The translations under genes were made by a program, and so were the position numbers. A model generated the notes under the pieces. The model saw only the letters and a list, made by a program, of their open reading frames with translations, had not been told where the DNA came from and searched no databases. A DNA stretch of 64,000 nt. It comes from a bacterium. Its GTDB lineage: Bacteria; Patescibacteriota; Microgenomatia; JAMCZE01. Positions 7,810 through 37,171 of this stretch are shown piece after piece (the stretch's first letter is position 1; every line of letters starts with the position of its first letter). The DNA lies in NCBI GenBank assembly GCA_021836035.1, contig JAKBJL010000001.1:138142-202141 (forward strand). The letters run 5' to 3'.

Positions 7810-7811
7810 GA

Positions 7812-8096: not shown

Positions 8097-8725
8097 GGAT
8101 AATATAATCCTTTCACCGTGAGCTTCACCGGCAATTCATTGGCGGGCCGCTTGTTAATGGTGCCCGATTGGGTGTGCTGCCCGATGGTTATTTTGGAAAT
8201 AACAAATATCCGCGGCAGGTTAACCAGCTGTTTTAAGAAATAACTGACCACATCGTAGGTACCCGATAGCTGTAGATCGATAGGAATGGCGGTTACCGCC
8301 GATTGGTTGGCGGAAGAATAATAATTTACCTTGGACACGCTAACCGACTCCAAACGCACCCCACTGGAGCTGGCAGTATTTTCCAATAAAATGATCGCGG
8401 CGCCGAGATCTGGGCTGGCCGGCATCGCTTCGTCCACTAAACCCAGATCCGGTTCAATCTCCTGATACTCCGTTTGGAGAAGGGCCAAAGCGTTAATTTT
8501 GGTGTCCAATTTCTGGGCAAATGCCTTTTTGTCAGTAATCTGTTTTTGTAAACCGACAATCGTCGCAATTGTCGGTCTGATAGCAAAAACCAGAAAGATT
8601 GTCACGGTTACAACAGAAGCGATCAGGGAAAAATAAGCCCGTACCGCGGGGTCTTTTAATAAGGGGCCCGCCGCGCTGTAATAGCGCTTATAACGCCGGT
8701 ATTCGGATCGATAGTCTAAGGCCAT
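8093..8725 (-). CDS. pilO: Type IV pilus assembly protein PilO-like
   Basis: Topology is short cytoplasmic N-terminus, one TM, a coiled-coil, then a periplasmic domain. Lies immediately downstream of and overlapping pilN. Confidence 0.55.
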   Translation of the reverse strand: MALDYRSEYRRYKRYYSAAGPLLKDPAVRAYFSLIASVVTVTIFLVFAIRPTIATIVGLQKQITDKKAFAQKLDTKINALALLQTEYQEIEPDLGLVDEAMPASPDLGAAIILLENTASSSGVRLESVSVSKVNYYSSANQSAVTAIPIDLQLSGTYDVVSYFLKQLVNLPRIFVISKITIGQHTQSGTINKRPANELPVKLTVKGLYYP

Positions 8726-9258
8726 AAAGTAGCGGCGACGGAAAAATTCAGAGTTTTCCCGTCTTCTGCCTGCTCTAATTTATTGACGGCAATATTTTTA
8801 ATCTGGGGATTCTTCTCCAACTCGGTAATAATTGTTTGAATTCCTCCTTCGGATTTAACCGTACCGGTCAGCGTCAGCCGGTTCACATCCAAATTGACGG
8901 AGTCGATCACGGATTCCTCCGGCAGGGCCGTGGTTAAGATCGGCAGATATTTTTCCGGCATTAAAATACTGGCGGTCAGCTTATCAATATTTTGCAATTT
9001 GTCCTGCAATTTACGAACTTTATTTTCAAACGGAGCGGAGGCGGAGATGATGCTTTTCTTGCGGGCAATATCTTCGGAAAGGTCGGTAAGATCCCGATCC
9101 AGTTTAAAGCGGGATAAAAAGGCCAAAAGCACAATCAGTTCGGTAATAACCACAATATAGCGCCCGGCGGTTAAAGCCCAGGCAAGAAATTTTCCCAACG
9201 GCGCCTTTTCAATTTCCGCCTGGGGCAACAGGTTAATTTCCGGCGTCGCCGTCTCCAT
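8716..9258 (-). CDS. pilN: Type IV pilus assembly protein PilN
   Basis: Hallmark N-terminal INLLP motif (METATPEINLLPQAEIEK), a single TM helix and a coiled-coil, about 180 aa. Confidence 0.65.
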   Translation of the reverse strand: METATPEINLLPQAEIEKAPLGKFLAWALTAGRYIVVITELIVLLAFLSRFKLDRDLTDLSEDIARKKSIISASAPFENKVRKLQDKLQNIDKLTASILMPEKYLPILTTALPEESVIDSVNLDVNRLTLTGTVKSEGGIQTIITELEKNPQIKNIAVNKLEQAEDGKTLNFSVAATLWP

Positions 9259-11251: not shown

Positions 11252-13211
11252 TCCTTCGACTGCGCTCAGGACGGGTCCTTCGACTTCGCTCAAGACAAGC
11301 CTTCCCCGGTCTCTTATCCGCAATTTTTGCATCATCGCCCATGTGGATCACGGCAAATCCACTCTGGCTGACCGCTTTTTAGAAATTACCGGATCGGTCA
11401 GCAAAAGCGGCCATGCTGAGCAACTTCTCGATAACCACCCAATCTCCCGCGCCCGCGGCATCACTATCCGCCTCGCCCCCGTTACCATGCATTATTCCTT
11501 AATTCGCAATTCGCAATTAGATAATTATCAATTAAATTTGATTGATACTCCCGGCCACGTCGATTTCAGTTATGAAGTGGAACGGACGCTTTCCGCCTGC
11601 GAAGGAGCGATTTTATTAGTTGACGCCACCCAGGGTATCCAAGCCCAGACCCTTTCCCATTTTCAGAAAGCGCAAAAGTTGGGATTAACTATTATTCCCG
11701 TGATCAACAAAATCGATATGCCTAACGCACGGACTGCTGAAACAGAGAAAGACTTACATGAATTATTCAATTCGCAACCCCGCAATAGCGAGGTTCCGAG
11801 TGAAAACGAGGGACTGGATAATTCGCAATTCCCAATTCTTAAGGTTTCTGCCAAGACCGGAGAGGGAGTGCAGGGCTTATTGGAAGAAGTGATTAGGAAA
11901 GTGCCGCCTCCGGCCGGTAATCCCGATGGTCCGGCGCGCGCTCTGGTTTTTTCTTCCCAATTTGCTGCCCAAAAAGGTGTGACCGCATTTGTCCGAGTCT
12001 TTGACGGCAAGTTAGAAGGCCGCGGAAAAATCCGTTTTTTGGCCGCCGGACTGGAAGCAGCTGTTTTAGACCTGGGCCACTTTTCCCCGGCCATGCTCCC
12101 CACGGAGGCCCTCGGAACCGGAGAAGTTGGTTACCTTACCACCAATCTTAAAGATCCGTCGCTCGTCCGTGTCGGCGATACCATCACCACGGAAAATTCG
12201 CAATTCGCAATCCCTCGACAAGCTCGGGATTATCCCGAGCGAAGCCGAAGGACAATTCACAATTCGCAATTGATTCCGTTACCCGGTTACCGCGAAATAA
12301 AGCCCATGGTTTTTATCAGTCTTTTCCCGGTCGACCAGAACGATTACGCGCTTTTGGAGGACGCCCTGGAAAAATTAAAACTCAACGATGCAGCGCTAGC
12401 TTTTTCTCCCATGGGCTCTAAAGTCTTAGGCCGCGGGTTCCGTGCCGGATTTTTAGGGCACCTTCATGCCGAAGTTTCCCGGGAACGGCTGGAAACCGAT
12501 TTCGGGCTGAATGTTCTCGCCACCACCCCCACCGTTGAATACCGAATTCGCAATTCGCAATCTCTCGACAAGCTCGGGATTATCCTGAGCGAAACCGAAG
12601 GACAATTTGCAATTCGCAACTATGAGGAACCTTGGGTTTTAGCTACCGTCATCCTCCCCCAAAATTATGTCGGCCCCATAATGTCCCTGAGCAAAGATCA
12701 CCGGGGAATTTTAAAGAATATGGTTTATCACGGCAATAATGTCACTCTAACTTACGAAATCCCGCTGGGGGAAATTATTACCGATTTTTTTGACGAGTTA
12801 AAGTCGCGCACTTCCGGTTACGGCAGTCTCGATTATGAATTTTTGGACTACCGTCCTTTCGATGCCGTTACCCTGGAAATTTTAATTAACCACGAGGCGG
12901 TCGATGCCTTTTCCCAAATTCTGCCAAAGGAAAAAGCGGAAAGCTACGGCCGTTTTTTGGTGGAGAGACTAAAAGAAGCTATCCCCCGCCAACAAATCCC
13001 CATTATCATTCAAGCAGCCATAGATAACCAGATTATTGCCCGCGCCGATATTGCCGCTTACCGCAAAGACGTAACGGCCAAACTTTACGGCGGGGACCGC
13101 ACCCGCCGGGATAAACTGCTGGAAGCGCAAAGAAAGGGCAAAAAGAAAATGCGGCAGATCGGCCGCGTGCAAATCCCCGGCGACACTTTCCTCAAAATCT
13201 TTAAAACCTAA
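11235..13211 (+). CDS. lepA: Elongation factor 4 (LepA), 658 aa with several in-frame repeat-derived segments
   Basis: G-domain motifs AHVDHGKST, DTPGH and NKID, then the LepA C-terminal region. About 55 aa longer than typical LepA because of the repeat segments described separately. Confidence 0.9.
   Translation: MKNMDNPSTALRTGPSTSLKTSLPRSLIRNFCIIAHVDHGKSTLADRFLEITGSVSKSGHAEQLLDNHPISRARGITIRLAPVTMHYSLIRNSQLDNYQLNLIDTPGHVDFSYEVERTLSACEGAILLVDATQGIQAQTLSHFQKAQKLGLTIIPVINKIDMPNARTAETEKDLHELFNSQPRNSEVPSENEGLDNSQFPILKVSAKTGEGVQGLLEEVIRKVPPPAGNPDGPARALVFSSQFAAQKGVTAFVRVFDGKLEGRGKIRFLAAGLEAAVLDLGHFSPAMLPTEALGTGEVGYLTTNLKDPSLVRVGDTITTENSQFAIPRQARDYPERSRRTIHNSQLIPLPGYREIKPMVFISLFPVDQNDYALLEDALEKLKLNDAALAFSPMGSKVLGRGFRAGFLGHLHAEVSRERLETDFGLNVLATTPTVEYRIRNSQSLDKLGIILSETEGQFAIRNYEEPWVLATVILPQNYVGPIMSLSKDHRGILKNMVYHGNNVTLTYEIPLGEIITDFFDELKSRTSGYGSLDYEFLDYRPFDAVTLEILINHEAVDAFSQILPKEKAESYGRFLVERLKEAIPRQQIPIIIQAAIDNQIIARADIAAYRKDVTAKLYGGDRTRRDKLLEAQRKGKKKMRQIGRVQIPGDTFLKIFKT
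11247..11295 (+). repeat. Imperfect ~20-bp tandem direct repeat inside the lepA N-terminus
   Basis: CCTTCGACTGCGCTCAGGAC / CCTTCGACTTCGCTCAAGAC encodes PSTALRTG-PSTSLKTS. It sits in front of the conserved IRNFCIIAHVDHGKST start of the G domain. Confidence 0.7.
11501..11518 (+). repeat. (AATTCGC)x2.5 heptanucleotide tandem repeat inside lepA
   Basis: aattcgcaattcgcaatt, translated in frame as LIRNSQL. Confidence 0.8.
11768..11837 (+). repeat. Degenerate AATTCGC-type repeats flanking a ~13-aa extra segment in lepA
   Basis: caattcgcaaccccgcaat ... aattcgcaattcccaatt encodes NSQPRNSEVPSENEGLDNSQFPI. This lies between NKID and SAKTG, a stretch about 13 aa shorter in typical LepA. Confidence 0.65.
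12195..12271 (+). repeat. 77-bp palindrome-containing mini-element, copy 1, in frame in lepA
   Basis: AATTCGCAATTCGCAAT, then ccctcgacaagCTCGGGATtATCCCGAGcgaagccgaagg, then ACAATTCACAATTCGCAATT. Heptad repeats flank a perfect 8+1+8 palindrome. Encodes NSQFAIPRQARDYPERSRRTIHNSQL, about 18 aa more than orthologs have between GDTIT and LPGY. Confidence 0.8.
12544..12620 (+). repeat. 76-bp mini-element, copy 2 (about 93% identical to copy 1), in frame in lepA but read in a different frame
   Basis: gaattcgcaattcgcaatctctcgacaagctcgggattatcctgagcgaaaccgaaggacaatttgcaattcgcaac encodes IRNSQSLDKLGIILSETEGQFAIRN. Confidence 0.8.
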
Positions 13212-13252
13212 GCCGTTTCCTCTGTCTGCAGTTTTATGTTATTCTAGAAATA

Positions 13253-14113
13253 ATGCGGCGGTTGTTAATTTGTTCTTTATTTCTCGTCCTTAGCGGTTAC
13301 ATTATTAATTTAGCCAAAAATGATCATGTAGCATTAGCGGCAGAAAACCCCGGCCAATTCCGTTGTCTCTGGTACACATCCGGTTCGAGCTATTGTGGCA
13401 CGGACATAAACGGAAATTCCTGTCAGTCGGGATATAGTGAAGTTCCCCAAATTTGTCTGGAAATAAAAAACCCCTCGGAATGTGACTCCGCTTCCTTTGG
13501 TTGTGTAGAAAAAGCCGGACCCCGGTATAGTTGTAAAAAGAATCAGGGGTGTGTACAGGACCCAAACGGTTACGATAGTTTGACTTCTTGCCAAAATACC
13601 TGTAAAGAACTCGGGGCTGTTAAATGTCCTGAAGGGTGTACCACATATGGCTTGGGTAGCGTCTGCTATGCAGAACCATTAGATATACTTCTTCCGAAAC
13701 CCTGCGAGAGCACTCTCTGTATCCCCTCGGCCGGAGATAAATACACTCAGTATTACTATGATCAAAAAAGTAAGTTTTGTTACTCCGTCAGGCGTGATTT
13801 GAGTCCGGTTTTTCTTTGCGTCGAAGACGGTAGTTGCCAAACCGCTATCGGCACAATATTCGCCAGCCCCGAGGATTTGGTTAAAGTCATTATGCAACTA
13901 GTGATAGGGTTGGTCGGGGGCGTTGCGCTTCTAGTGCTAATTTTAACCGGTTATCAGCTAATGACCTCCTCCGGTGATCCGCAAAAATTAGCGGTTGCTA
14001 AAGAACTAATTGTTTCCGTTATAACCGGTATTCTCATGATCGTTTTTTCCATGGTATTATTACAGGCAATCGGAGTGGATATCTTAAAAATTCCCGCGCT
14101 GGTCGCGCCCTAA
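13253..14113 (+). CDS. Secreted Cys-rich protein with a C-terminal two-helix VirB2/TrbC-like pilin module
   Basis: Signal peptide and about 26 Cys, then GLVGGVALLVLILTGYQLMTSSGDPQKLAVAKELIVSVITGILMIV. This C-terminus is paralogous to the three downstream small proteins. Confidence 0.5.
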   Translation: MRRLLICSLFLVLSGYIINLAKNDHVALAAENPGQFRCLWYTSGSSYCGTDINGNSCQSGYSEVPQICLEIKNPSECDSASFGCVEKAGPRYSCKKNQGCVQDPNGYDSLTSCQNTCKELGAVKCPEGCTTYGLGSVCYAEPLDILLPKPCESTLCIPSAGDKYTQYYYDQKSKFCYSVRRDLSPVFLCVEDGSCQTAIGTIFASPEDLVKVIMQLVIGLVGGVALLVLILTGYQLMTSSGDPQKLAVAKELIVSVITGILMIVFSMVLLQAIGVDILKIPALVAP

Positions 14114-14114
14114 A

Positions 14115-14465
14115 ATGAGATTCCCGGGTTTTAGAACCATCGAGCTGCCCAACGGCTTCCCTACCGGAGGCTTGAGTATTATTGCTACGATCATCGTCAA
14201 TTTAGTATTGCTAGCCCTGATTATTATCTTTATTCTCGCCTTTTCTTACCTGGTTATCGGCGGTCTTAAGTGGATTGCCTCCGGCGGCGACAAACAAGCC
14301 CTTGCTTCCGCCCGGTCTGCTATTACTTATGCTGTACTTGGACTTGTACTTGCGCTGGTTTCTTTTGCCATAATTAACTTTGTCTCCTGCTTTTTTGGCA
14401 TTTATCTTGGTTTAGGAGGTGGCTGTTGGTCTACTGCCCAAATTACCCATGGGCTTACTCCATAA
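14115..14465 (+). CDS. Small two-helix membrane protein, VirB2/TrbC-like pilin candidate (paralog 2)
   Basis: A hydrophobic helix, a loop (IGGLKWIASGGDKQALASARSAI), a second helix, and a GLTP terminus. Starts 1 nt after the upstream stop. Confidence 0.5.
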   Translation: MRFPGFRTIELPNGFPTGGLSIIATIIVNLVLLALIIIFILAFSYLVIGGLKWIASGGDKQALASARSAITYAVLGLVLALVSFAIINFVSCFFGIYLGLGGGCWSTAQITHGLTP

Positions 14466-14485
14466 AACTATTATTAGTCACTTCT

Positions 14486-14518
14486 TGACAGCCTCCGAAA
14501 ATCATGCCATATTAAATA
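14486..14518 (+). promoter_or_regulatory. Candidate sigma70-like promoter for the third pilin-like gene
   Basis: TTGACA at 14486-14491 and an extended TATTAAAT -10 element about 17-19 nt downstream. A GAAGGGGG ribosome-binding site sits ahead of the ATG at 14575. Confidence 0.3.
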
Positions 14519-14574
14519 TAGACGAGAAGCAGGGTCCAGTTATGCTACAACCATAAGTGGCGAAGGGGGTGAAT

Positions 14575-15003
14575 ATGAGAGATTTAAGAAAATTAATTAC
14601 TACCGCTACAATATTAGCCAGCGGCTTATATTTTGCTGCGCCCGTTTTTGCCCAAAATATAAATCTTTGCCCCACTAACGGTGGTAACCTATGCTCGCTC
14701 ACGATCCCTGCGGTTATTACCGGTCTTATCCAATTTGTTTTAATAGTCGCTTTCCTTCTGGCCTTTGCCTTTCTAGTCATGGGAGGCATTAGGTGGATTT
14801 TAAGCGGTGGCGATAAAGCAGGAACGGAAGCGGCCAAGGGGACTATCACTGCGGCTCTTATCGGCCTAATTGTTGTCCTGGTTGCTTGGGCTATTCTCAA
14901 TTTGGTTAAAACTTTCTTTGGCATTAATTTTGATCTCGGTTCATTGGCCATACCAACCATAACCAATCCGGCAACAAATCCTAACCACGGAATAACCCCA
15001 TAG
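14575..15003 (+). CDS. VirB2/TrbC-like pilin candidate (paralog 3) with a cleavable signal peptide
   Basis: MRDLRKLITTATILASGLYFAAPVFA signal, then FLVMGGIRWILSGGDKAGTEAAKGTITAALIGLIVVLVAWAI. Start moved to the ATG that has a ribosome-binding site; the listed ORF starts at an upstream GTG. Confidence 0.5.
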   Translation: MRDLRKLITTATILASGLYFAAPVFAQNINLCPTNGGNLCSLTIPAVITGLIQFVLIVAFLLAFAFLVMGGIRWILSGGDKAGTEAAKGTITAALIGLIVVLVAWAILNLVKTFFGINFDLGSLAIPTITNPATNPNHGITP

Positions 15004-15015
15004 GCCCGTTCGGTA

Positions 15016-15048
15016 AAAACCCGCCCGAATATCAAAGGCGGGTTTTTG
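15016..15048 (+). terminator. Rho-independent terminator
   Basis: aaaacccgcc - cgaatatcaaag - ggcgggtttt followed by a T-rich run. It lies directly after the TAG stop at 15003. Confidence 0.6.
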
Positions 15049-15066
15049 GTGTGTTATACTAAAAAG

Positions 15067-15396
15067 GTGAACGGTTGTGATTGGAATGCATTAAAAGGTG
15101 GCGGAGGTACGGTTCCAACACTTCCCTGCCTAGCGGAGTTTTTTGTGCGGATTATCGGCGCCCTTTTTCTCTTTTTGGGAGCGGTAAGCTTGCTATTTTT
15201 ACTTTATGGTGCCGGGCGTTTCGTTATTTCTTCAGGGGATCCAAAGGCTATAGCCGGAGCCCGTAACACTATGACTTACGCTCTCCTTGGTCTTGTGCTT
15301 ATACTTATCTCCTTCGCCATTCTCCGTTTCGTCGGGGGTTTCCTGGGGCTTCCCGAAGATACCCTCTTAAACTTCAGGCTCTGGGTCGGTCCTTAA
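15067..15396 (+). CDS. VirB2/TrbC-like pilin candidate (paralog 4); start codon uncertain
   Basis: LYGAGRFVISSGDPKAIAGARNTMTYALLGLVLILISFAIL matches the paralog consensus. The listed GTG start at 15046 lies inside the upstream terminator, so a downstream start is more likely. Confidence 0.4.
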   Translation: MNGCDWNALKGGGGTVPTLPCLAEFFVRIIGALFLFLGAVSLLFLLYGAGRFVISSGDPKAIAGARNTMTYALLGLVLILISFAILRFVGGFLGLPEDTLLNFRLWVGP

Positions 15397-15442
15397 TATA
15401 TTCTCCTTGACACCTACCGCTTCCTTAGCCATAATGTAACTA

Positions 15443-17089
15443 ATGAAAAAACTGGGAACGGTCGCGATCCTGGTCCTGTCTTTTTTCTTTTTGACAGCTT
15501 CTTCTGTTTTGGCCCAAACCAACGCCCAACGAAGGACAACTTGCGTCCAGGCCTGTCCAGCCGGAAACGGGGCCGCAGCCTGTGTAGCTAATTGCTATCA
15601 ACTTTACCCCCAAAACCAGAATAATACGCCTATCGAAAACCGCGCTGCGGAAGGCCTTTGGCAGGGAACTCCTATTGATCCGACGCTCCCCCTTTATCAA
15701 AAACAGGTTGAGGAACAGCAGCAAAAAGGCGGTGCTTATGAATGGATGAGCCAGGTAACTTTTAACTATCTGGCTTTGGCGATCACTAATAAAATTGCCG
15801 GCAGCCCCGTGACCGGACCTAACGGCAACGTTACCGGTTATCGGGGGGGGGCGATTAATCTTTTTGCTTCCCTGACCGGAACAATGTATGCTAATAAGCC
15901 GGCTTCTACAGGACAATATGTCCAATATTTGGCGCAAAACGCCGGCTTTCCCAATCTTGTTCCGGTAGCTTACGCCCAAAGCGGCGGAATTGGTTTTCAA
16001 GGATTAAATCCGATCCTACAAATTTGGCAGGTGGTCCGTAATTTAGCTTACCTGGCTTTTGCCGTGATCTTTGTTATTATCGGTTTGATGATCATGCTCC
16101 GGGTGAAGATTGATCCCAAGACTGTAGTTTCCATCCAAAACGCCCTGCCGAAAATCTTTTTGTCCTTAATTTTAATTACTTTTTCCTACCCTATCGCCGG
16201 ATTTCTAATTGATTTAATGTATGTATTAATTGGCGTGATTATCAGTCTTTTTGCCGGCGCTTTCGGTTCTTTTGATGTCACGGGTTTTAGACAAAATATA
16301 CAATATAAAACCATTTTTGAGTTTGTCGGTACCAACCTTTTTATCATGCCATCTTTCCAGAGCGGAAAATCCATCAATGATATTATTGTCGCCTTAACCG
16401 GAAACATCCCCGGTGTTTCTAATCTTTTTGGTTTTGTCGGCGGGGTTATTGGCGGGCTCATAATCTCTCTTGCCATTCTTTACGCCCTTTTTAGAACCTG
16501 GTTGATGCTTCTGGGCGCTTATATCAATATTATTATCGGCGTGATCCTTTCGCCCCTGGCGATGCTTGCCGACGCTATTCCCGGCCAGAGCGGCTTTTCC
16601 GCCTGGCTTCGTTCCATGCTTTCTAATCTCTTGCAGTTCCCTCTGGTTATTACTTTGCTCCTTTTTGGCGGCGGTTTGGTTTCCATGTCTAACCAATTCC
16701 AGCCTTCTCAAAACCCGGGTGGACCTTTTGTTCCGCCACTTATCGGAGGCAGCGATCCCAATGCGATCCCCGCCCTTATCGGTATTGGTATACTACTGAT
16801 GATCCCGAAAGCGGGAGCCATGTTGCAAGAATGGTTAAAATCTCCGCCGTTTAAACACGGTATGGCCTGGGCCGAAGCAGTAGGCTGGGCTTATTCTCCG
16901 TACGCAGGGGGTCTATTAGGGCAACCAAGGGGTAGAGAGGCTGCTGCGCAAGCAGAACGCGGTGGTTTACCACGAGGAATTTGGGATCGTTTATCCCCCC
17001 TGCCCGGAGCTGCTGCCACTGCAGCTAGCGGAGCATTAGCCCGAAGAAGATCTCCCACTGGTGGTTCGCCTTCAGCTACTACACCTTAA
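15443..17089 (+). CDS. VirB6/TrbL-like polytopic membrane protein
   Basis: Signal peptide, an extracytoplasmic domain of about 180 aa, at least six TM helices and a hydrophilic C-terminal tail. Lies immediately downstream of the pilin-like paralog array. Confidence 0.5.
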   Translation: MKKLGTVAILVLSFFFLTASSVLAQTNAQRRTTCVQACPAGNGAAACVANCYQLYPQNQNNTPIENRAAEGLWQGTPIDPTLPLYQKQVEEQQQKGGAYEWMSQVTFNYLALAITNKIAGSPVTGPNGNVTGYRGGAINLFASLTGTMYANKPASTGQYVQYLAQNAGFPNLVPVAYAQSGGIGFQGLNPILQIWQVVRNLAYLAFAVIFVIIGLMIMLRVKIDPKTVVSIQNALPKIFLSLILITFSYPIAGFLIDLMYVLIGVIISLFAGAFGSFDVTGFRQNIQYKTIFEFVGTNLFIMPSFQSGKSINDIIVALTGNIPGVSNLFGFVGGVIGGLIISLAILYALFRTWLMLLGAYINIIIGVILSPLAMLADAIPGQSGFSAWLRSMLSNLLQFPLVITLLLFGGGLVSMSNQFQPSQNPGGPFVPPLIGGSDPNAIPALIGIGILLMIPKAGAMLQEWLKSPPFKHGMAWAEAVGWAYSPYAGGLLGQPRGREAAAQAERGGLPRGIWDRLSPLPGAAATAASGALARRRSPTGGSPSATTP

Positions 17090-17092
17090 ATT

Positions 17093-18958
17093 CTATTTCG
17101 GTTGAGCATACCTACCGAAATACATTTTAAGCACTTCGCTTTCGAGGACAACTGTTGAATTCCTGCTCAAAAAATTACCCTGTTTCATCGCTTGTAATAC
17201 CGCCCTTACTTGCTGATTCGTCCAATACGCCCGCTTATAAGGATTAATAGGATTATCCGGTACCGCCTCAGGAGAGCCACACCAAAAAACTCCTAGAATA
17301 TAATTGAAGCGCATTTTGTCTAAAGTAGCCTCTTGGAATTCTTTTAATGAAGCTCTTGTGTCGGGCATACCTGGCGGTACTCTTAAAAGGGTAGGGCAAA
17401 AAGCGGTAACCCGGTTAATCAGCTTATGCATAGAATCCCAATAACCCGGGTCAACCAGTTTTTTAAGATCCTGGCCTCTTTCTTTGAAGGTGCTGACAAT
17501 GGTGTTAGCAAAAGCTAAATCATAACCGAAATAGCCCGCATATTGGGTGGGTTCCAATTGCCAGAAAGGCATTTGTTTCCAAGTATAATCAGAAAGCCTC
17601 CGCGGTTGCCCAGCGTCTGCAACCTGCACTGAGCGGAAAAAGTCCCCGACTATCTCTGCCCTGGTCACATCAGCGGGGTTAAAAACAAAAACCGCCTTGG
17701 AAGTTTTATTTTTTTTCAAAATATCAATTCTCCTTTTGGCCATATCCTTCGCGCGGCCTTCCCGCGGCCAACCGCCGTAAGTGGCAATATTATCCTGTTC
17801 CGGTGCCGCCCAGTAAGCCCCGACAGTAATATCCGGTCCGGCCGGGTCGCCTTTCATAAAATCGTTGCGCCGCTTGTATTCAAAGTGCATAAGATCCCGA
17901 TCTTCACCGATGGTCGTATGTTGTTCCCTTTCTTTGTCCCACATAGACATGGTTAAATTGCAGGTTAAATAATCGCCAGCTAGTTCGGTAGCCCAGCGAG
18001 CTTGGAAACGGGTGTAATGGTCCTCGTCAACCAATTTATTCTCAATCTGTGCTTTAAAATAAGCCATATACGCGTCTGATTGAATCGCGTCTTTAAAGGA
18101 AATGGTTCCGCGATAAGGATCGGTATAGGCTTCCCCCGCCGCTTTCCATTCGTTCAAAGCGGCGCTAACAGGAATTTTTGCATCCGTGTTACTGACGAAA
18201 GGAAAAATTTCATCCAGATGGGTTATCGTCCAATGATCTTCGGGAGTAAGGTTGGTAAACTTAATCGTGGTTTGCGCTTGAACTTCCGGTGAAACCACCC
18301 CCATAACCGCCAGCGATCCTTTGGACGATTCAATTTCTACTTTGCGATTTCTGATGCGACACAAAGCCCAAAGGGTAGATTTCAATGCTTCCTGATATGG
18401 AACTTGGCGTTCATAACCGAGTCCGGCACCTCGAAACACAGTTACAAAGTTGAGTTTTAAATCTTCCGGCATCGCATCCAAGCCGTTGACTATTGAAGAT
18501 AGTTCTAAATTCTCAGAAATCCTCTCCTGAAATAGTTTACCGTTGATATTTTCGTATTGTTCAAAAACGGTGCCTAAAACCGCTTCCATCCAGCCGTCAA
18601 CACTATTCGGATCCTGCGGGCCTATTTCTAAACGATAGGGTGCCGCTACGGGGCGATTGGTAGCGGACCTGCCTGAAAAAGTCGTTCCTCCGGCAACCGG
18701 GCCCTTACCCTTTTTCATCAATTCATCGATATCGTCCAATTCCTCAGGTTTTAACTCCCCGCCGGACCCCACTATCTCACGAATATAGTTTCCCCAGGCA
18801 ATTTTAATATTAGGCAAGGTTGCCTTTTCCCGCGGGCGCGCAATTTCCTTACAAGGCGCTTCCTGTGATTTGCCCGTTTGTACTCCCGATAATATCTCAG
18901 GAGATCTGGTAGAGGCTCCTGCTTCCGGCGGCCGATATACTCCTTCTCCTTCTGCCAT
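17093..18958 (-). CDS. Hypothetical cytoplasmic protein (621 aa), no recognisable domain
   Basis: Long ORF with no signal peptide, TM helix or Walker motifs. Trp/Tyr-rich. Convergent with the VirB6-like gene. Confidence 0.5.
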   Translation of the reverse strand: MAEGEGVYRPPEAGASTRSPEILSGVQTGKSQEAPCKEIARPREKATLPNIKIAWGNYIREIVGSGGELKPEELDDIDELMKKGKGPVAGGTTFSGRSATNRPVAAPYRLEIGPQDPNSVDGWMEAVLGTVFEQYENINGKLFQERISENLELSSIVNGLDAMPEDLKLNFVTVFRGAGLGYERQVPYQEALKSTLWALCRIRNRKVEIESSKGSLAVMGVVSPEVQAQTTIKFTNLTPEDHWTITHLDEIFPFVSNTDAKIPVSAALNEWKAAGEAYTDPYRGTISFKDAIQSDAYMAYFKAQIENKLVDEDHYTRFQARWATELAGDYLTCNLTMSMWDKEREQHTTIGEDRDLMHFEYKRRNDFMKGDPAGPDITVGAYWAAPEQDNIATYGGWPREGRAKDMAKRRIDILKKNKTSKAVFVFNPADVTRAEIVGDFFRSVQVADAGQPRRLSDYTWKQMPFWQLEPTQYAGYFGYDLAFANTIVSTFKERGQDLKKLVDPGYWDSMHKLINRVTAFCPTLLRVPPGMPDTRASLKEFQEATLDKMRFNYILGVFWCGSPEAVPDNPINPYKRAYWTNQQVRAVLQAMKQGNFLSRNSTVVLESEVLKMYFGRYAQPK

Positions 18959-30761: not shown

Positions 30762-31901
30762 ATGATGAAACTAGAAATATTACAGGAAAATTTGCTGAAG
30801 GGTCTCTCTATGGTAGGACGGGTGATCACTTCCAAGCCGCAAATGCCCGTACTGGCAAACATTCTATTGGAAACCGATAACGGCAGATTAAAACTCAGCG
30901 CTACGGATTTGGAAATCAGCATTACCACCTTAATCGGAGTCAAAATTCTTAAAGAAGGCAAATATACCATTCCGGCTAAAACTTTCGCGGAACTGGTCGG
31001 TAGCCTGCCTCCCGGGAAAGTGGAGATGGAATTAGAAGAAGGCCAGTTGGCGATAACCGCCGGCCGGTTTAAAGCCAAAGTTAACGGTGTACCGGCGCAG
31101 GAGTGGCCACTAAAGGCGATGGAAGGTAAAAAAACCGCAGGTTGGAAATTGGAAATCGCCGCGGAGGAATTCATTGTCGGTGTTGCCTGTACTTCCTTTG
31201 CTGCCGCCGCAGACGAGGGTCGGCCTGTACTTACCGGAATCTTATTTAAATTAACCGATTCCGGTTTAACCATGGTGGCTACTGACGGTTTTCGCTTATC
31301 GGTAAAAAAACTGGCAGCCGTAAAGGCGGAAGGAAAAGGGGAAGAAACAAGATCCTTTATTATTCCAGTGAAAGCGCTACAGGAGGTTGCCCGCATTTTG
31401 AGCGAGAATAAAGAATTAAAGATATTAAAAATCAATCTTACGGAAAACAGCGCGGATTTTGATTTGGGAGATACCCAGCTTTCTGCCCGTTTAATTGAGG
31501 GGCTTTATCCTGCATATGAAAAGATTATTCCCGGCGCTCCGGTGATTAAAGCCCGGGTCGGACGGGAAGAATTAGCTTCCGGGATCCGGACAGCCGGGGT
31601 TTTTGCCCGCGACAGCGCTAATATCGTCAAATTTGTTTTAAACAAATCTCAATTTTTAGTCAAAGCGGTAGCCGCTCAAGTAGGAGAGAATGAAAGCGAA
31701 ATTGACGCTAAAATCGAAGGGATAGAAGAGGAATTGGCAATTGCTTTTAATTTCCACTATCTATTGGATCTTTTAAATTGTGCCGGGAAAAGCGAAGAAC
31801 TGACTTTGGGTTTTTCCGGTCCTCTGGCCGCCGGGATGTTTAAAATCTCCGACGATCAGAGCTTCCTGCATATTATTATGCCTGTTCGGGTGCAGAGCTA
31901 G
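30762..31901 (+). CDS. dnaN: DNA polymerase III beta sliding clamp
   Basis: MKLEILQENLLKGLSMVGRVI...LANILLE...LKLSATDLE, a three-domain 379-aa protein. Lies next to dnaA. Confidence 0.85.
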   Translation: MMKLEILQENLLKGLSMVGRVITSKPQMPVLANILLETDNGRLKLSATDLEISITTLIGVKILKEGKYTIPAKTFAELVGSLPPGKVEMELEEGQLAITAGRFKAKVNGVPAQEWPLKAMEGKKTAGWKLEIAAEEFIVGVACTSFAAAADEGRPVLTGILFKLTDSGLTMVATDGFRLSVKKLAAVKAEGKGEETRSFIIPVKALQEVARILSENKELKILKINLTENSADFDLGDTQLSARLIEGLYPAYEKIIPGAPVIKARVGREELASGIRTAGVFARDSANIVKFVLNKSQFLVKAVAAQVGENESEIDAKIEGIEEELAIAFNFHYLLDLLNCAGKSEELTLGFSGPLAAGMFKISDDQSFLHIIMPVRVQS

Positions 31902-33729
31902 CCTCTTTTTCCCTTTGTTTTTTAGCGGCGATGAGCTCCTCGGGCTTACTGGTGATGAGTTCGTGTTCTTCGGGGGAGGCGACCACCTGTATGGCGACAT
32001 GCGAGGAGCCGGCAAAGAAAAGGCCTTGGCCGACATTGGCTGAAAGCAGAAGGCTTTTTTCTCCCTCGGAAAGATAAAATATCTGCGCCACTTTATCAAT
32101 CGCCGCCGGTGACTGTTTCATCAGCATTTGAATACTGCTGTTGGTAACAATGGTTTTACCCAGGTCGGTGGCGAGGAAATCTTCGATGTCCTGGGTAATC
32201 GTCGTTAGCCCCAGGTAATATTTGCGGGCGCGTTTAGCAAAACCCCATAAAAATTCGGCGCTGTTCTGGTTTTTCATTAAATACCAGCCTTCATCGACGA
32301 TTAAAATCCGCCTTTTCATTTTCCTTTTTATCTGGCTCCAGACATAATCCATAATGATAAAAATTGCCAAGCTGCGCATTTGATCCTCCAGGTTTTTAAA
32401 GGAGAATACGGTAAAAGAATTATTGAGATTCACGGTCGAGCGCTGGTTAAAGACGCCGCCGAAACTGCCTTTGACAAATTTTTCCAGGCGCAAAGCCAGA
32501 TTTTGGGCTATTTGCGTTTCCATCCCGATCAGTGTCCGATAAAGGTCTTCGAGAAGCGGCGGTTCGTTTCTGTGGGTAGCCGGATCATAGGTGATCCCTT
32601 TTTGTTTATAAGTCAGCTCCAGGGCGTTGTGCAAAATAGCATCTTCTTCGGCGGATTTTGTTTCGACCATAATTTTAAGAAGCCGCGCCAGGGTAAAACC
32701 GATTTTTAGCTGCAGTTCGTTCTCTGCTTCTTCACCGGAGCCGGATAAATCGAAAGGGTTGATATGGGTATCGCTGCCGAAAGCAAAGGAAATATAATCG
32801 CCGCCCACAGAATCGGACAGGCTTTTATATTCCTCTTCCGGATCGACAATAATCACATCCGTACCGAACATCAGAGAACGCAAAGCTTCTAATTTGACTA
32901 AAAAACTTTTTCCGCTGCCGCTTTTTCCTAAAACTACTTCATTGGCGTTTTCTAAAGAAAAACGGTCAAAGATAATCAGCGATCCGTTATGTTCGTTGAG
33001 GCCGTATAAAATTCCAGAATTAGCGGTTAGTTCCGAAGAGGTAAAAGGAAAGGTGGTAGCGAGCGACGTGGTATCCATATTGCGGGTGATCATCAGTTTG
33101 TCCAGACAAGTAGGAGAAGTAGTTTTAAAACCGTCCTCCATCTGGAGGGTCGCCGGCTTGCTGATAATCAAAAGCGCTCCTAGGGTGGAGGAGACCTCTT
33201 TAGTTAACTGGTTTAACTGTTCGATGCTGTCGCTGCTGATAGTGACATAAAGCCCGAATTGGTAAAACTTTTCCGCACCTTTGGCCAGTTGTTCCTGAAG
33301 ATTTAACGCGTCATCAAGAGCTACCTGGACATTGGGGTCAATTACTTTGCCGCGCTTGATATCGCTTTCAATGGTTGCTTCCATTTCTGCAATTTTCCGT
33401 TTCATATCGGAGAGGATCTCCTTGGACTCAACGGGATAAATAAAGATGGAAACGTCCAGACTGCTGTTGAAATTAATAAGCGGCGCCAGCCAATTGGCGC
33501 TGACAAACCGCGGGTAGCCGGCGACAAAAAGGGTGCGGTAAAATTTTTCCCCGATTTTTAAATAATCAAAATCAACTTCGATGGCGGCCGGGGCGATGAT
33601 ATCCTGGACGGTAACCATCCCGGCAGCCAGGGATTTGTCAGGGCCTTCCGGTACGCTTTCGGGCTGGAAGCGCTTTACCAGAGGGATGTTAATTTTGGGC
33701 AGTTTAACCATAAGAGAATCTTTAATCAT
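31876..33729 (-). CDS. VirB4/TrbE/CagE-family T4SS ATPase (C-terminal two thirds)
   Basis: CagE/TrbE/VirB4 signature IIAPAAIEVDFDYLKIGEKFYRTLFVAGYPRFV. Walker A GKSGSGKS. Walker B RRILIVDEGW. RKYYLGLTTITQ. Confidence 0.75.
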   Translation of the reverse strand: MIKDSLMVKLPKINIPLVKRFQPESVPEGPDKSLAAGMVTVQDIIAPAAIEVDFDYLKIGEKFYRTLFVAGYPRFVSANWLAPLINFNSSLDVSIFIYPVESKEILSDMKRKIAEMEATIESDIKRGKVIDPNVQVALDDALNLQEQLAKGAEKFYQFGLYVTISSDSIEQLNQLTKEVSSTLGALLIISKPATLQMEDGFKTTSPTCLDKLMITRNMDTTSLATTFPFTSSELTANSGILYGLNEHNGSLIIFDRFSLENANEVVLGKSGSGKSFLVKLEALRSLMFGTDVIIVDPEEEYKSLSDSVGGDYISFAFGSDTHINPFDLSGSGEEAENELQLKIGFTLARLLKIMVETKSAEEDAILHNALELTYKQKGITYDPATHRNEPPLLEDLYRTLIGMETQIAQNLALRLEKFVKGSFGGVFNQRSTVNLNNSFTVFSFKNLEDQMRSLAIFIIMDYVWSQIKRKMKRRILIVDEGWYLMKNQNSAEFLWGFAKRARKYYLGLTTITQDIEDFLATDLGKTIVTNSSIQMLMKQSPAAIDKVAQIFYLSEGEKSLLLSANVGQGLFFAGSSHVAIQVVASPEEHELITSKPEELIAAKKQREKEASSAPEQA

Positions 33730-33759: not shown

Positions 33760-34437
33760 TTACTGGGTTGAGATTGCCGGAGAAGTGTAAGGGACGCTGC
33801 CGACCAGCTCTGTTCCTTCGGCGCCGGGATTATAAATAGTGTAAAAAAGCTCGATCAATTCCTGGGTGTTAAGCTGCCGGGCGCGCAGTCCCAGGCGCCC
33901 GAGCTGTCGGTAGATATGTTCTGCCTTAGGGGCTAAAGCGACCTTGGCCTTTTCGATGATCGTTTCTACCGGCAAAGGCAAGCCGGTTTGTTTAATCAAA
34001 AGCTTTGCCGAGCTGGAAACCCCCAATTCCAGGGAGCTGAAAGGGATGCAAATGTAGAATTTTTTGTCCAGGACGTTGTTTTCTTTGACTGTTTTGACGA
34101 TAAAATCACGGTATTTGGCAATCTGGTTTTTAAGAAGGGCGTTCTGTTGTTCATCCTCTGCTTTCTGAAGCTGGGATACGTAGGAGGAAATATCTTTACG
34201 TTTACTCCTGATGACGATCTGAATGGGGAAAGTGAGTGAATTTAAAAGGCCGGCATAAGCGTAAATAATTGCGTCCTGTTCCATTTCGGACAAAAGGCCG
34301 AAGTTGACGGCGGTAGTCTGGATGGTCAGGGTAACGGAACCGTCTTTAAGAATGATTAAATTATCCCGGATATCATAGATTTCCAGGTGTTCCTGAGTAG
34401 CCCCGCGGATAGCAACTTTACTAAGGTCGACGGGCAT
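33760..34437 (-). CDS. VirB4 N-terminal-domain-like protein, encoded separately 30 nt upstream of the ATPase ORF
   Basis: Soluble 225 aa protein (DIRDNLIILKDGSVTLTIQTTAVNFGLLSEMEQDAIIYAYAGLL), resembling VirB4/TraC N-terminal regions. The gap to the next ORF contains a stop codon and a possible AAGG ribosome-binding site. Confidence 0.45.
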   Translation of the reverse strand: MPVDLSKVAIRGATQEHLEIYDIRDNLIILKDGSVTLTIQTTAVNFGLLSEMEQDAIIYAYAGLLNSLTFPIQIVIRSKRKDISSYVSQLQKAEDEQQNALLKNQIAKYRDFIVKTVKENNVLDKKFYICIPFSSLELGVSSSAKLLIKQTGLPLPVETIIEKAKVALAPKAEHIYRQLGRLGLRARQLNTQELIELFYTIYNPGAEGTELVGSVPYTSPAISTQ

Positions 34438-35205: not shown

Positions 35206-35229
35206 TAAGGGTTGTCGGAGGCGAGAAAG

Positions 35230-35953: not shown

Positions 35954-37171
35954 TTAAGCCGCAGCCGATTGCTTTTCCTGAAGGCCTTCGGTTTGACTGC
36001 CGTCTGCTTCCGCGCTTTCCTTGGCCTCAATTTCTAACGGGGTAACGACATTGCCGTCTAATTTAATTTCTAAAATGTCGAAATGATAACCCTCTTTATC
36101 CATTTCCAAATAATAAGTGCCGCTTTCCAGCGGGGTGCTGGCTAAAAACTGGCCGACTTTATTAGTCCGCAGGGCCCGGACGCTAGTTCCCTGGATGTTT
36201 TTAATAATAACGATAACCCCGGGAAGAATTTGGTCCTGGGCATCTTTAACTACCCCGGAAATCAGGTTGGGAGTGGTAATTTGGAAAATGCCGGCGTAGG
36301 CCGGCTTGGGCGGTTTCTTTTCCGTTTTGGGCTGGGCGGGCTTGGCGTAAGGCGAATATCTTTTGGGGAAGGTCAGGTTTGCCGCTTTAATTTCCGTTGC
36401 CTCCTTGATTGTCGACTGCGGCAGCTTGGCTTGCTCCCGGATTTTTACCATCTCGTCGATGGTAATTGTCGCCTTTGGGGCCGTCTCTTTTGGTGCTTCT
36501 TGAACCCGCGCCTGTACCTGTTCTTCTAGCGGGGGTATTTTTTCCTCCGGCGACGGCTCTTCCGACGGGACTTTCGCGTTTTGATCACCGGAAAATTCCT
36601 TTAACAAATCTTCGCGGATGCGGATGAGGTCCTCGATGCCCATCTGTCGTTTTTCGTTGGGTTTTTCTTCAGGCGGGGGCAGGGGATTTAGCGCTACCTG
36701 CGGAGCCTCTTCCGCCGCCGCTTCTTCCGGTTCGGTCTGGGGCAGGGTTTGCAGATACTCCTGCAGGCGGGTGTCAGTAGGCGCCGAAGCCGCGGCTTGC
36801 TCTAAAGACACCGGCGGGGCTAAAGGTTCTTCGGTGGTCTCGGGAATATTCCAGACTCCCGCCTGTTTGCGCCCGCTTTTTTTCCAAAGATAAAGTGTCG
36901 GGCGGTAGATAGAGCGGAAGAAATTGATGACCCAGATGTCCAGCGGCCGCTCATTGACCGGGACAAAGGCAAAAGTGACCCCGGAAACAATAAAAAGGAT
37001 TGCCAGGGGGAATTTGATAATAGCATACCAATCGGAAGCATAGAAGATAAAAGCGGTAATAAATCCGGCCGCCAGGTAGCCGAATTGTTTCAGGGTCATA
37101 TCGCCGACCAGCTTAAACTCAAAACCGGTAATGTTCTGAGGGACAGGATGCTGCTCCATGGCAAATTTCAT
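35954..37171 (-). CDS. PrgI/VirB3-like two-TM N-terminal module fused to a Pro/Glu-rich linker and a C-terminal CarboxypepD_reg-like beta-sandwich domain
   Basis: N-terminus FKLVGDMTLKQFGYLAAGFI...FVPVNERPLDIWVINFFRSIYRPTLYLW resembles PrgI-family (VirB3-like) proteins of Gram-positive T4SS. C-terminus VKDAQDQILPGVIVIIKNIQG...GTYYLEMDKEGY. Confidence 0.4.
   Translation of the reverse strand: MKFAMEQHPVPQNITGFEFKLVGDMTLKQFGYLAAGFITAFIFYASDWYAIIKFPLAILFIVSGVTFAFVPVNERPLDIWVINFFRSIYRPTLYLWKKSGRKQAGVWNIPETTEEPLAPPVSLEQAAASAPTDTRLQEYLQTLPQTEPEEAAAEEAPQVALNPLPPPEEKPNEKRQMGIEDLIRIREDLLKEFSGDQNAKVPSEEPSPEEKIPPLEEQVQARVQEAPKETAPKATITIDEMVKIREQAKLPQSTIKEATEIKAANLTFPKRYSPYAKPAQPKTEKKPPKPAYAGIFQITTPNLISGVVKDAQDQILPGVIVIIKNIQGTSVRALRTNKVGQFLASTPLESGTYYLEMDKEGYHFDILEIKLDGNVVTPLEIEAKESAEADGSQTEGLQEKQSAAA

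Follow-up and report, generated by a model that had tools for sequence, protein, structure and literature searches.

A tandem array of four VirB2-like PF18895 proteins beside a divergent VirB6-like gene in a Microgenomatia-type Patescibacterium

A run of plus-strand genes in the 64,000-nucleotide stretch analysed here (the window), which derives from a Patescibacteria MAG of Microgenomatia type, is probably the pilin array of a chromosomal, conjugation-derived type IV secretion system (T4SS), composed of four VirB2-like PF18895 proteins and a divergent VirB6, and we propose that it builds a fibre. VirB2-like pilin arrays in the chromosomal T4SSs of Patescibacteria have already been published (Wang 2023; Quinonero-Coronel 2025). 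A total of 441 arrays are known from 383 Patescibacteria assemblies, abundantly in Microgenomatia and with the T4SS near dnaA (PMC12102498); named examples are the Southlakia epibionticum ML1 locus SEML1_0006-0019 and the 'Sec-secreted array' of TM7x (PMC12102498, PMC10633639). In Southlakia epibionticum, the pilin array and the T4SS are essential (PMC10633639). The array in the window is a further example of these known arrays, not a new kind of system.

The four genes follow one another on the + strand, where the earlier note had placed them, and public annotation of the source contig is concordant with the gene calls. They encode a type-1 pilin-family protein (P1; 13253..14113, 286 aa), a type-2 protein (P2; 14115..14465, 116 aa), a canonical type-3 pilin (P3; 14575..15003, 142 aa from ATG 14575 or 148 aa from GTG 14557), and a type-4 protein (P4; 15046..15396, 116 aa from TTG 15046). 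The C-terminal module that the note described as common to all four is seen in each and consists of two hydrophobic helices with an S(S/G)GD(K/P) loop between them; its similarity among P1-P4 exceeds chance. Pairwise BLAST comparison within the window's array gave 87 bits for P2-P3 (42% identity), 61 for P2-P4, 52 for P3-P4, and 41 for P1-P4, with zero matches for P1-P2 and P1-P3. Lys and Arg residues are concentrated in the inter-helix loop and are almost lacking from the C-terminal tails, and a hairpin with a basic loop is present in 4/4 proteins. The proposed (G)xTP end is found in P2 and P3, but P1 and P4 share only the terminal Pro, and the motif is not kept in orthologues.

The shared module belongs to the Pfam family PF18895, 'Type IV secretion system pilin'. 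Taking the curated gathering cut-off of 26.6 bits as the lower limit for membership, P1 (32.3 bits), P2 (28.4 bits), and P3 (34.4 bits) are members; P4 scores 20.4 bits (E 5.5e-4), under the cut-off, and its positional orthologues in two related loci (L003 and L004) carry PF18895. All 36 family members scanned match PF18895, and seven of these also match Pfam TrbC/VirB2 (PF04956; best E 2.1e-5), in agreement with the VirB2/TrbC-like assignment made earlier. Among the four families matched by most members, TrbC/VirB2 is the sole named family of known function and has the second-best E-value, and P1 itself reaches 16.2 bits against Pfam TrbC, below the cut-off of 27.9. Direct homology of the array proteins to solved VirB2/TraA pilins is weakly supported. 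An hhalign comparison with seven annotated VirB2/TrbC proteins, a narrow, self-assembled reference alignment from alphaproteobacterial plasmids, was collinear at a probability of 9% and an E of 0.0037. A family profile search of PDB sequences retrieved no pilin chain and only chance matches to Smoothened. The AF2 model of P3 consists of a signal helix and a helical hairpin (pLDDT 90-94, as 10-residue block means over residues 51-110); Foldseek of this model against the PDB returned unspecific helical hairpins and nothing at E <= 0.001, with an Aeropyrum conjugation pilin at rank 13 (E 5.2). A tblastn search of P3 against 72,556 plasmids gave zero matches.

Comparison with pilins of diderm systems and of other classes helps to place the module. 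As in VirB2/TrbC/TraA (PF04956; T-pilus and F-pilus), P1 and P3 combine a signal peptide with a two-helix hairpin, the inter-helix loop is basic, the termini are predicted to lie outside, and the genes are associated with VirB3, VirB4, and VirB6. In contrast to these pilins, with which there is no significant sequence match, the loop is ∼14 residues longer and bears the S(S/G)GD motif, two of the four types lack a signal peptide, and one carries a large ectodomain; VirB5, VirB7, VirB9, and VirB10 are absent from the host, a monoderm. P1-P4 also give weak, collinear matches over the two-helix module to NCBIfam NF045849, the Mbov_0395 family of pilin-like conjugal transfer proteins from a Mycoplasma ICE (24.5, 16.0, 16.7, and 24.2 bits, respectively), all under the 40-bit cut-off and therefore a hint of relationship rather than membership. 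That element likewise resides in a monoderm and has a related VirB4, the VirB4_plasma model being the second-best match of the VirB4 in the window. Type IV pilins, which are PilD-processed, resemble the array proteins as a small, secreted, fibre-forming class (the fibre here being our proposal) but have a single N-terminal helix and a globular head rather than a two-helix hairpin. The class III prepilin motif G-(F/M)TL(I/L)E, searched for as a regular expression, is absent from all five proteins, and we therefore dropped a type IV pilin reading, as the earlier note had done.

P1 begins with a signal peptide (about residues 1-29, 13253-13339), continues with a Cys-rich ectodomain (residues 30-195, 13340-13837), and ends with the PF18895 two-helix module (residues 196-286, 13838-14113). 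The additional Cys-rich N-terminal domain reported earlier is thus present, with a mature length of ∼165 aa, but by direct count P1 contains 19 Cys residues, 18 of them after the signal peptide, and not 26. The ectodomain is an orphan. An exhaustive HMMER search yielded three weak matches, to Cys-rich repeats in giant surface/LRR proteins, and no family; in ten long position-1 orthologues, Pfam likewise recognised no ectodomain family. Relative to P0122, the closest homologue, the module is 55% identical and the ectodomains are unrelated; across type-1 proteins, the ectodomain ranges from 90 to 520 aa. These comparisons describe the type-1 pilin as a conserved anchor with a hypervariable ectodomain, to which variation within the array is limited. 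Because it displays a fast-evolving ectodomain, the type-1 protein is a candidate host-recognition module.

For P2 and P4, a signal peptide is ruled out because their ORFs are closed upstream. The P1 stop codon and the P2 start are separated by 1 nt, and alignment of 16 position-2 orthologues shows a short N-terminal tail with a conserved ...P.G(I/V/F)PTGG motif that leads into the two-helix module. In the position-4 alignment, the tail instead holds a conserved Cys pair, C...(V/A)(A/P)(T/S)L.C, ahead of the module. The start of P4 is ambiguous between TTG 15046 (116 aa), GTG 15049 (115 aa), and GTG 15067 (109 aa), the last of which is preceded at 7 nt by an extended -10-like element, TGTTATACT.

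P3 has a Sec signal peptide that ends VFA (followed by QN) and, besides the two-helix module, contains a Cys pair. Its start is most likely ATG 14575, which follows the Shine-Dalgarno-like AAGGGGGTG and corresponds to the public call of 142 aa. The search for P3 homologues returned 323, and PF18895 was present in 119 of the 120 listed. Upstream of the gene is a sigma-70-like promoter (14485..14513, + strand; TTGACA, 17 nt, CATATT, with TG), which agrees with the consensus at 10/12 positions; in five relatives (L003, L007, L008, L009, and L012), a TCTTGAC(A/T) box occurs right after the P2 stop codon, with a strong GGAGGTG-type Shine-Dalgarno site downstream. Directly after P3 is an intrinsic-terminator-like hairpin (15014..15048, + strand; ACCCGCC...GGCGGGT, then a T-run) with a dG of -19.7 kcal/mol and a z of -2.74, which overlaps the earliest possible start codons of P4. 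The hairpin is conserved 3' of the position-3 gene in L003, L007, and L008, and in L008 it carries one compensatory change, from C-G to U-A. A terminator and a promoter-like element between the copies, and with them separate transcription, had been suggested previously; the hairpin proved real and is kept in three related genomes, the promoter-like element retains its -35 box in relatives, and such conservation lends support to the predicted separate transcription. Its own conserved promoter and terminator suggest P3 as the candidate major subunit.

The array is followed by a gene for a 548-aa polytopic membrane protein (15443..17089, + strand) that we assign as a divergent, 'extended' VirB6-like protein. 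It is built from a signal peptide, a ∼165-aa extracellular domain, a membrane core of helices that spans residues ∼190-470, and a Pro-, Gly-, and Arg-rich tail that is disordered. The polytopic core is that of the VirB6 fold, as the note had anticipated for the gene downstream of the pilins. There is no direct match to Pfam TrbL (PF04610; cut-off 25.9 bits), a cut-off passed by just 2/40 members of the VirB6-like family. One of these, P0092, scores 32 bits over residues 314-502, a region that is 40% identical to residues 316-517 of the protein in the window. A search of PDB sequences with the family profile gave nothing, and structure comparison was required instead. By hhalign against a narrow, self-assembled reference of five VirB6 sequences from alphaproteobacterial plasmids, the invariant P371...W388 segment aligns to VirB6 P179...W197 with a probability of 1.4% and an E of 0.036. 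Adjoining pilin genes are shared with VirB6/TrwI of R388, DotA of Dot/Icm, and the 'extended VirB6' proteins, and this weak alignment may be a further resemblance; the total length, the N-terminal extracellular domain, the disordered tail, and the lack of a direct TrbL match set the protein apart, and its identity to TrwI is 12%. A promoter-like site (15407..15435, + strand; TTGACA, 17 nt, CATAAT; 11/12 consensus matches) ends 7 nt before the VirB6-like ATG, a spacing that implies a leaderless mRNA, and TTGAC(A/T)-17-CATxxT also occurs 6-7 nt upstream of the start codon in L007 and L009. Directly after the VirB6-like gene, and linked to it by synteny only, is a convergent gene for a 621-aa soluble protein (17093..18958, - strand) with no Pfam or NCBIfam match. 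In 73/86 loci, the corresponding place is taken by a large convergent ORF; homology among these ORFs is undetectable past the closest relatives, and an iterative profile search from the 621-aa protein found nothing past its closest relative.

Further T4SS genes in the window lie on the - strand, 17-22 kb from the array, flanking dnaA and dnaN. The VirB4-like T4SS ATPase (31876..33729, 617 aa) scores 394 bits against NCBIfam conju_CD1110 (cut-off 325) and 115 bits against Pfam P-loop_TraG. The TrsD-like protein (33760..34437, 225 aa) has a weak, below-cut-off match to NCBIfam TrsD (E 2.8e-6) and aligns, also below cut-off, to positions 113-233 of VirB4_plasma (E 3.3e-8); it corresponds to the VirB4 N-terminal region, carried on a gene of its own, and its location between the PrgI-like and VirB4 genes is conserved in 13 related loci. 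The third gene (35954..37171, 405 aa) encodes a fusion of a VirB3-like PrgI domain (29.2 bits; cut-off 27) with CarboxypepD_reg (32.6 bits). Type IV pilus genes (PilN, PilO), which form a set distinct from the T4SS, also occur upstream in the window.

The array in the window is not adjacent to virB4, which counts against its reading as a T4SS pilin array, as does the lack of signal peptides in P2 and P4, unlike in classical VirB2. Pilin ORFs occur at 67/80 related VirB6-like loci and at 35/35 of those with full flanks, and all 317 pilin ORFs are on the same strand as the VirB6-like gene. Within 10 kb of that gene, 23 loci have PrgI, 13 have TrsD, and 10 have VirB4; at L004, a PrgI homologue directly follows a four-pilin array. 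The earlier note had named lack of co-occurrence with T4SS genes in relatives as grounds for refutation, and co-occurrence is what these loci display. The VirB6 called 'scarce' in Microgenomatia is probably the family described here, which is linked to pilins at every full-flank locus. The published arrays are defined by at least two PF18895/VirB2-like genes in tandem or one gene apart, with VirB4 in the genome, and by an association with VirB3/PrgI, TrsD, and VirB6 near dnaA (Quinonero-Coronel 2025); the window has four such genes in tandem, together with VirB4 and these partners. Other common features are weak identity between array members and a chromosomal T4SS whose ancestry is monoderm (MPF-FATA-like) and whose genes are near dnaA/dnaN; no relaxase or coupling protein was seen in the window. 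The window differs in that the array is beside VirB6 and 17 kb from virB4, in a VirB6 too divergent for the HMMs of the published survey, and in a fixed, Microgenomatia-type cassette of four types: an ectodomain pilin, a signal-less PTGG type, a canonical pilin, and a signal-less Cys-pair type.

In the mechanism that we propose, each pilin protein would form a helical hairpin in the cytoplasmic membrane, with the N and C termini outward and the basic S(S/G)GD(K/P) loop in the cytoplasm. A VirB4/VirB3/VirB6 machine would then extract the subunits from the membrane and polymerise them, with VirB6 as the platform, to give a fibre or conduit outside the cell that touches the host. P3, which combines a Sec signal peptide, a conserved promoter of its own, and a strong Shine-Dalgarno sequence with a terminator expected to reduce read-through, may be the bulk subunit; P1 would add a disulphide-rich, fast-diverging ectodomain on a conserved anchor, probably for surface or tip recognition of the host; and P2 and P4 are probably specialised low-copy subunits, for example an initiator or adaptor. 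These roles are assigned from expression signals and architecture only. A more specific version, which we offer tentatively, is that the four-type cassette forms a heteromeric VirB2-like fibre in a monoderm, in which P1 is a pilin-adhesin fusion whose hypervariable, disulphide-rich ectodomain would replace the missing VirB5/PrgB adhesins and set the host specificity of Microgenomatia, and that the VirB6-like protein would be the assembly platform missed in this class by HMM surveys.

The products could alternatively be related to VirB2 without polymerising, serving as structural or gating subunits in the membrane around VirB6 or as a short cell-wall stalk, with no extracellular pilus. We consider this unlikely. 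Monoderm T4SSs are normally without pili, nor has a fibre been seen experimentally in any Patescibacterium (PMC12102498, PMC12857230); the array proteins are linked only weakly to filament-forming pilins by sequence and structure, two of four types lack a signal peptide, and strict conservation of four distinct types is expected for parts of a complex of fixed stoichiometry. Against it, the strong signals and terminator of the P3-type gene suggest a high copy number, the extracellular Cys pairs are conserved, and type-1 ectodomains of 90-520 aa make sense only if displayed outside the cell.

A pool of interchangeable pilin variants for antigenic or host-range variation has been proposed for Bartonella and Anaplasma and suggested for Patescibacteria, with host adaptation as a role (PMC12102498). 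The arrays of VirB2 paralogues in Bartonella and Anaplasma, read as immune-evasion variation, likewise comprise several tandem, divergent virB2-like genes at one T4SS locus; low identity within the window's array (31-42% for BLAST-detected pairs, with P1 undetectable against P2 and P3) and the hypervariable P1 ectodomain would fit such a pool. However, in 15 other genomes every array position is matched by an orthologue of its own. Best hits fell to the same array position in 240/240 comparisons for P1, 179/240 for P2, 236/240 for P3, and 235/240 for P4, and orthologues are 42-49% identical, against the 31-42% of the paralogue pairs. Judged by these best hits, the four genes are a conserved cassette with strict positional orthology, and the four pilin types are ancient and positionally conserved. 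Every position also has type-specific architecture and motifs, which together with the positional orthology indicates that the paralogues are old and non-redundant and not recently diversifying copies. A variant pool is therefore improbable, and the suggestion of 'variable' fibre subunits in the earlier note is not supported; a fibre, if formed, may be heteromeric.

That these are unrelated small two-helix membrane proteins (holins, immunity proteins, or transporter subunits) under a misleading Pfam name is highly improbable: hairpins are low in information, with sub-threshold matches to many membrane families and unspecific Foldseek matches, but PF18895 alone passes threshold in the Pfam scan of P1-P4 and family members, the same-strand linkage to the VirB6-like gene is 100% at full-flank loci with PrgI, TrsD, and VirB4 recurring nearby, and the matches to TrbC/VirB2 and to the Mycoplasma ICE model point the same way. 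The holin or transporter reading, for which the note had asked for a profile search, was rejected as no such family reached threshold.

The preferred reading, a pilin array of a conjugation-derived T4SS, concerns a machine that, with its pilin array, is essential to the epibiotic growth of the sole genetically tractable Patescibacterium. Taken alone, the locus adds little as a further example; set beside its relatives, it yields points that can be tested. For a monoderm T4SS, a pilus would be without precedent, and the Microgenomatia-type 'array' would comprise four fixed, specialised types of subunit rather than a pool of variants.

The four consecutive plus-strand genes that an earlier note reported at 13253–15396 are all present there as open reading frames. 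P1 encodes 286 residues, and P2 (116 residues) starts 1 nt past its stop codon. P3 can be read as 148 residues from GTG 14557 and more probably, judging by the preceding AAGGGGGTG, as 142 residues from ATG 14575; P4 yields 116 residues from TTG 15046, with alternative starts at GTG 15049 and GTG 15067. A polytopic protein of 548 residues (15443–17089) is encoded after P4. Public gene calls agree, at 286, 116, 142, 115, and 548 residues. The C-terminal (G)xTP end described in the earlier note fits P2 and P3, but neither P1 nor P4, and is not conserved in orthologues. Proline is the last residue of all five proteins (AP, TP, TP, GP, and TP at 14108–14113, 14460–14465, 14998–15003, 15391–15396, and 17084–17089, respectively); its conservation among orthologues is only partial, and it may reflect either chance or a processing signal.

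The setting is chromosomal and typical of Patescibacteria, with MurJ and LepA upstream of the array, PilN and PilO at 8.1–9.3 kb, and rnpA, yidC, dnaA, and dnaN at 27–32 kb. PilO and PilN belong to a type IV pilus gene set that, together with the gene for a 975-residue surface protein containing Big_13, fn3, and filamin repeats, occupies 4882–9258 on the minus strand, 4–8 kb upstream of the array, so that two different, closely spaced fibre systems are encoded in the genome. The lepA gene (11235–13211) carries in-frame repeat insertions, among them two 75-nt elements (12195–12269 and 12545–12619) that are 93% identical and have the motif AATTCGCAATTCGCAAT at their bounds. This motif occurs six times within lepA and once in a tsaD-like gene (46671–46687, minus strand, two mismatches), against a chance expectation of 0.02, and LepA is 658 residues long in the window (655 in the public gene call) versus 586 in a relative.

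As proposed from the sequence, P1–P4 share a C-terminal module in which a long hydrophobic helix is joined to a second helix by a loop that holds S(S/G)GD(K/P) and basic residues. The module is recovered by Pfam PF18895 (‘Type IV secretion system pilin’) and by pairwise BLAST. The Pfam scores of P1, P2, and P3 (32.3, 28.4, and 34.4 bits) exceed the cut-off of 26.6 bits, and that of P4 (20.4 bits, E 5.5e-4) falls below it. BLAST pairs P2 with P3 at 87 bits (42% identity), P2 with P4 at 61, P3 with P4 at 52, and P1 with P4 at 41 bits, and finds no match of P1 to P2 or P3. P3 has 323 detectable homologues, with PF18895 present in 119 of 120 among the matches listed; the family is also matched by 36 of 36 aligned sequences, seven of which additionally touch Pfam TrbC/VirB2 (best E 2.1e-5). 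At the level of sequence, membership of P1–P4 in PF18895 is therefore established. One relative, the 231-residue P0124, carries two such modules in a single polypeptide, a tandem double pilin.

The VirB2/TrbC-like identity suggested in the earlier note stands as far as PF18895 membership goes, but the direct connection to classical VirB2 is weak. A search of PDB sequences with a profile of the family found no pilin, hhalign against seven annotated VirB2/TrbC proteins from plasmids gave 9% probability (E 0.0037), and the AF2 model, a confident helical hairpin, drew non-specific Foldseek matches. In the hhalign alignment the signal-peptide cleavage site and both helices are collinear, and the loop of the PF18895-type proteins has 14 additional residues. 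Homology to classical VirB2/TrbC is plausible on these comparisons. The class III signal of type IV pilins is indeed missing, as no prepilin motif is present.

The pattern of a long protein followed by proteins of ∼115, 140, and 105 residues recurs in sixteen loci, the window included. When the best match of every module was sought in every other locus, it matched the query's array position in 240/240 (position 1), 179/240 (position 2), 236/240 (position 3), and 235/240 (position 4) comparisons. Orthologues are 42–49% identical, compared with 31–42% for the BLAST-detected paralogue pairs in the window's array. Each type has its own architecture: type 1 consists of a signal peptide, an ectodomain of 90–520 residues, a C...C motif, and the hairpin; type 2 has no signal peptide and a conserved N-tail (...P.G(I/V)PTGG); type 3 has a classical signal peptide ending in AxA, often followed by a Cys pair; and type 4 has no signal peptide and an N-tail with a conserved Cys pair (C...VATL.C). 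P2 and P4 cannot carry a signal peptide because their reading frames are closed upstream. There are thus four conserved pilin types. Multiple copies have been read, by analogy with Bartonella and Anaplasma, as interchangeable variants (PMC12102498), and variability was one of two possibilities raised in the earlier note (variable or heteromeric subunits); however, same-position best matches and type-specific architectures indicate that the copies are old and non-redundant, with most of the variation in the type-1 ectodomain. That of P1 contains fewer cysteines than first counted (19 in the protein, 18 of them after the signal peptide, rather than 26). A search of 1.84 billion representative proteins gave it no relatives beyond weak Cys-repeat matches, and none of the ectodomains in the 15 other cassettes has anything in common with it. 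P1 and its homologue P0122 have anchors that are 55% identical and ectodomains that share nothing, and the long type-1 ectodomains of orthologues match no Pfam family.

Further T4SS genes lie elsewhere in the window: a PrgI/VirB3-like protein fused to CarboxypepD_reg (35954–37171), a 225-residue TrsD-like protein (33760–34437, minus strand), and a VirB4 ATPase (31876–33729, minus strand; NCBIfam conju_CD1110, 394 bits, cut-off 325). No relaxase or coupling protein was found among the large reading frames scanned in the window. VirB4 is apparently split: the TrsD-like protein, which matches VirB4 models at their N-terminal part, precedes the 617-residue ATPase. A PrgI-like gene followed by this pair is conserved in 13 related loci. 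The unit is contiguous in relatives, whereas in the window it is interrupted by opposite-strand ZIP transporter and methylpurine glycosylase genes (34477–35938, plus strand), and ∼15 kb including dnaA and dnaN separate it from the pilin/VirB6 part.

Among 80 loci from a scan of species-representative genomes for the VirB6-like family, 67 contain PF18895-type reading frames (1–9 each), as do 35 of the 35 with full 10-kb flanks, and all 317 of 317 pilin frames lie on the strand of the VirB6-like gene. Short or truncated contigs account for the 13 loci lacking them, and 10 of these lose the upstream side because no more than ∼1.5 kb separates the start of the VirB6-like gene from the contig end. 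Within 10 kb of the VirB6-like gene, PrgI-like genes occur in 23 loci, TrsD-like in 13, and VirB4 in 10, and in locus L004 a PrgI-like gene directly follows a four-pilin array. Because pilin, VirB6-like, and PrgI/TrsD/VirB4 genes are linked both in the window and in related loci, the co-occurrence on which the original reading depended holds, and the array is linked to T4SS genes. Many MAG records with the Patescibacteria-type gene set (loci L007–L085) bear the title ‘uncultured Gammaproteobacteria’ or ‘Pseudomonadales’, and single ones ‘Clostridia’, ‘Methylococcaceae’, or ‘Limisphaerales’; mislabelling or mis-binning is the probable cause. In 73 of 86 loci the VirB6-like gene is immediately followed by a large convergent reading frame (250–1560 residues), and the sequences of these frames form many unrelated BLAST clusters. 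The window's copy (17093–18958, minus strand; 621 residues) has no known domain and relatives confined to the closest genomes; its product may be a T4SS-associated protein, or a T4SS substrate, that evolves rapidly.

The polytopic protein encoded after P4 has itself no Pfam or NCBIfam match, and has 274 homologues in Microgenomatia-type genomes (e.g., Levy-, Collier-, Woese-, Curtiss-, and Gottesmanbacteria). Pfam TrbL/VirB6 is passed by 2 of 40 family members, one of which, P0092 (32 bits, residues 314–502), is 40% identical over this region to residues 316–517 of the window protein. With the AF2 model (mean pLDDT 72.5; membrane core mostly >80), the eight best PDB matches in Foldseek are all TrwI/VirB6 chains of R388, and a weak hhalign alignment to five VirB6 proteins (E 0.036) pairs the family's invariant P371...W388 with the VirB6 invariant P179...W197. 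The predicted structure thus shows a VirB6 fold, as the earlier note had anticipated. In Microgenomatia, VirB6 was ‘scarce’ in a published survey, which suspected that it had diverged to an extreme degree (PMC12102498), and the family described here is a strong candidate to fill that gap.

The type-1 gene either abuts the type-2 gene or overlaps it. The expected promoter-like element between copies was located at 14485–14513 (10/12 matches plus a TG extension), and its −35-like box, TCTTGAC(A/T) after the type-2 stop codon, is conserved in the window and loci L003, L007, L008, L009, and L012. Before the type-3 start codon there is a Shine-Dalgarno site of the GGAGGTG type. The putative terminator was likewise recovered as a hairpin (15014–15048, −19.7 kcal/mol, z −2.74), ACCCGCC...GGCGGGT-Tn, after the type-3 gene, conserved in L003, L007, and L008, with one compensatory change in L008. 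These predicted signals fit P3 as the abundant subunit. Before the VirB6-like gene, TTGAC(A/T)-17-CATxxT ends 6–7 nt from the start codon in the window (15407–15443), L007, and L009, and extended −10-like elements stand 7 nt before the P1 ATG (13225–13255) and before P4 GTG 15067 (15051–15069). Unlike P3 with its strong site, the VirB6-like, P1, and possibly P4 starts have no Shine-Dalgarno site; since −10 elements end 6–7 nt before start codons, this suggests leaderless mRNAs for the VirB6-like gene, P1, and possibly P4.

Arrays of 2–11 VirB2-like (PF18895) genes have been published from 383 Patescibacteria assemblies, and are especially frequent in Microgenomatia and Saccharimonadia; the T4SS often lies close to dnaA (PMC12102498), so the P1–P4 array is another example of these. 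In the main texts consulted we found no account of the positional orthology of the four-type cassette, of type 1 with its ectodomain, of the conserved promoter and terminator signals of P3, or of the candidate Microgenomatia VirB6; these are incremental results open to testing. A T4SS fibre in Patescibacteria has not yet been shown by experiment, and the array is known only as essential, in Southlakia epibionticum (PMC10633639; PMC12857230).

We propose that the subunits have both termini outside and the basic loop in the cytoplasm; P1–P4 have 2–3 K/R residues in the loop and 0–1 in the C-tails, and the conserved Cys pairs sit in the N-tails. The split VirB4 (TrsD-like protein and ATPase), PrgI/VirB3, and VirB6 would pull subunits out of the membrane, to be polymerised on the VirB6 platform. 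P3 would be the bulk subunit, P2 and P4 specialised minor subunits, and P1 would display a fast-evolving ectodomain for host contact. P1–P4 also match, all weakly (16–24.5 bits, cut-off 40), the Mycoplasma ICE model NCBIfam NF045849 (‘Mbov_0395 family pilin-like conjugal transfer protein’), a hint that monoderm MPF-FATA systems may already have pilin-like proteins of their own; if so, there would be no need to invoke import from diderm T4SSs.
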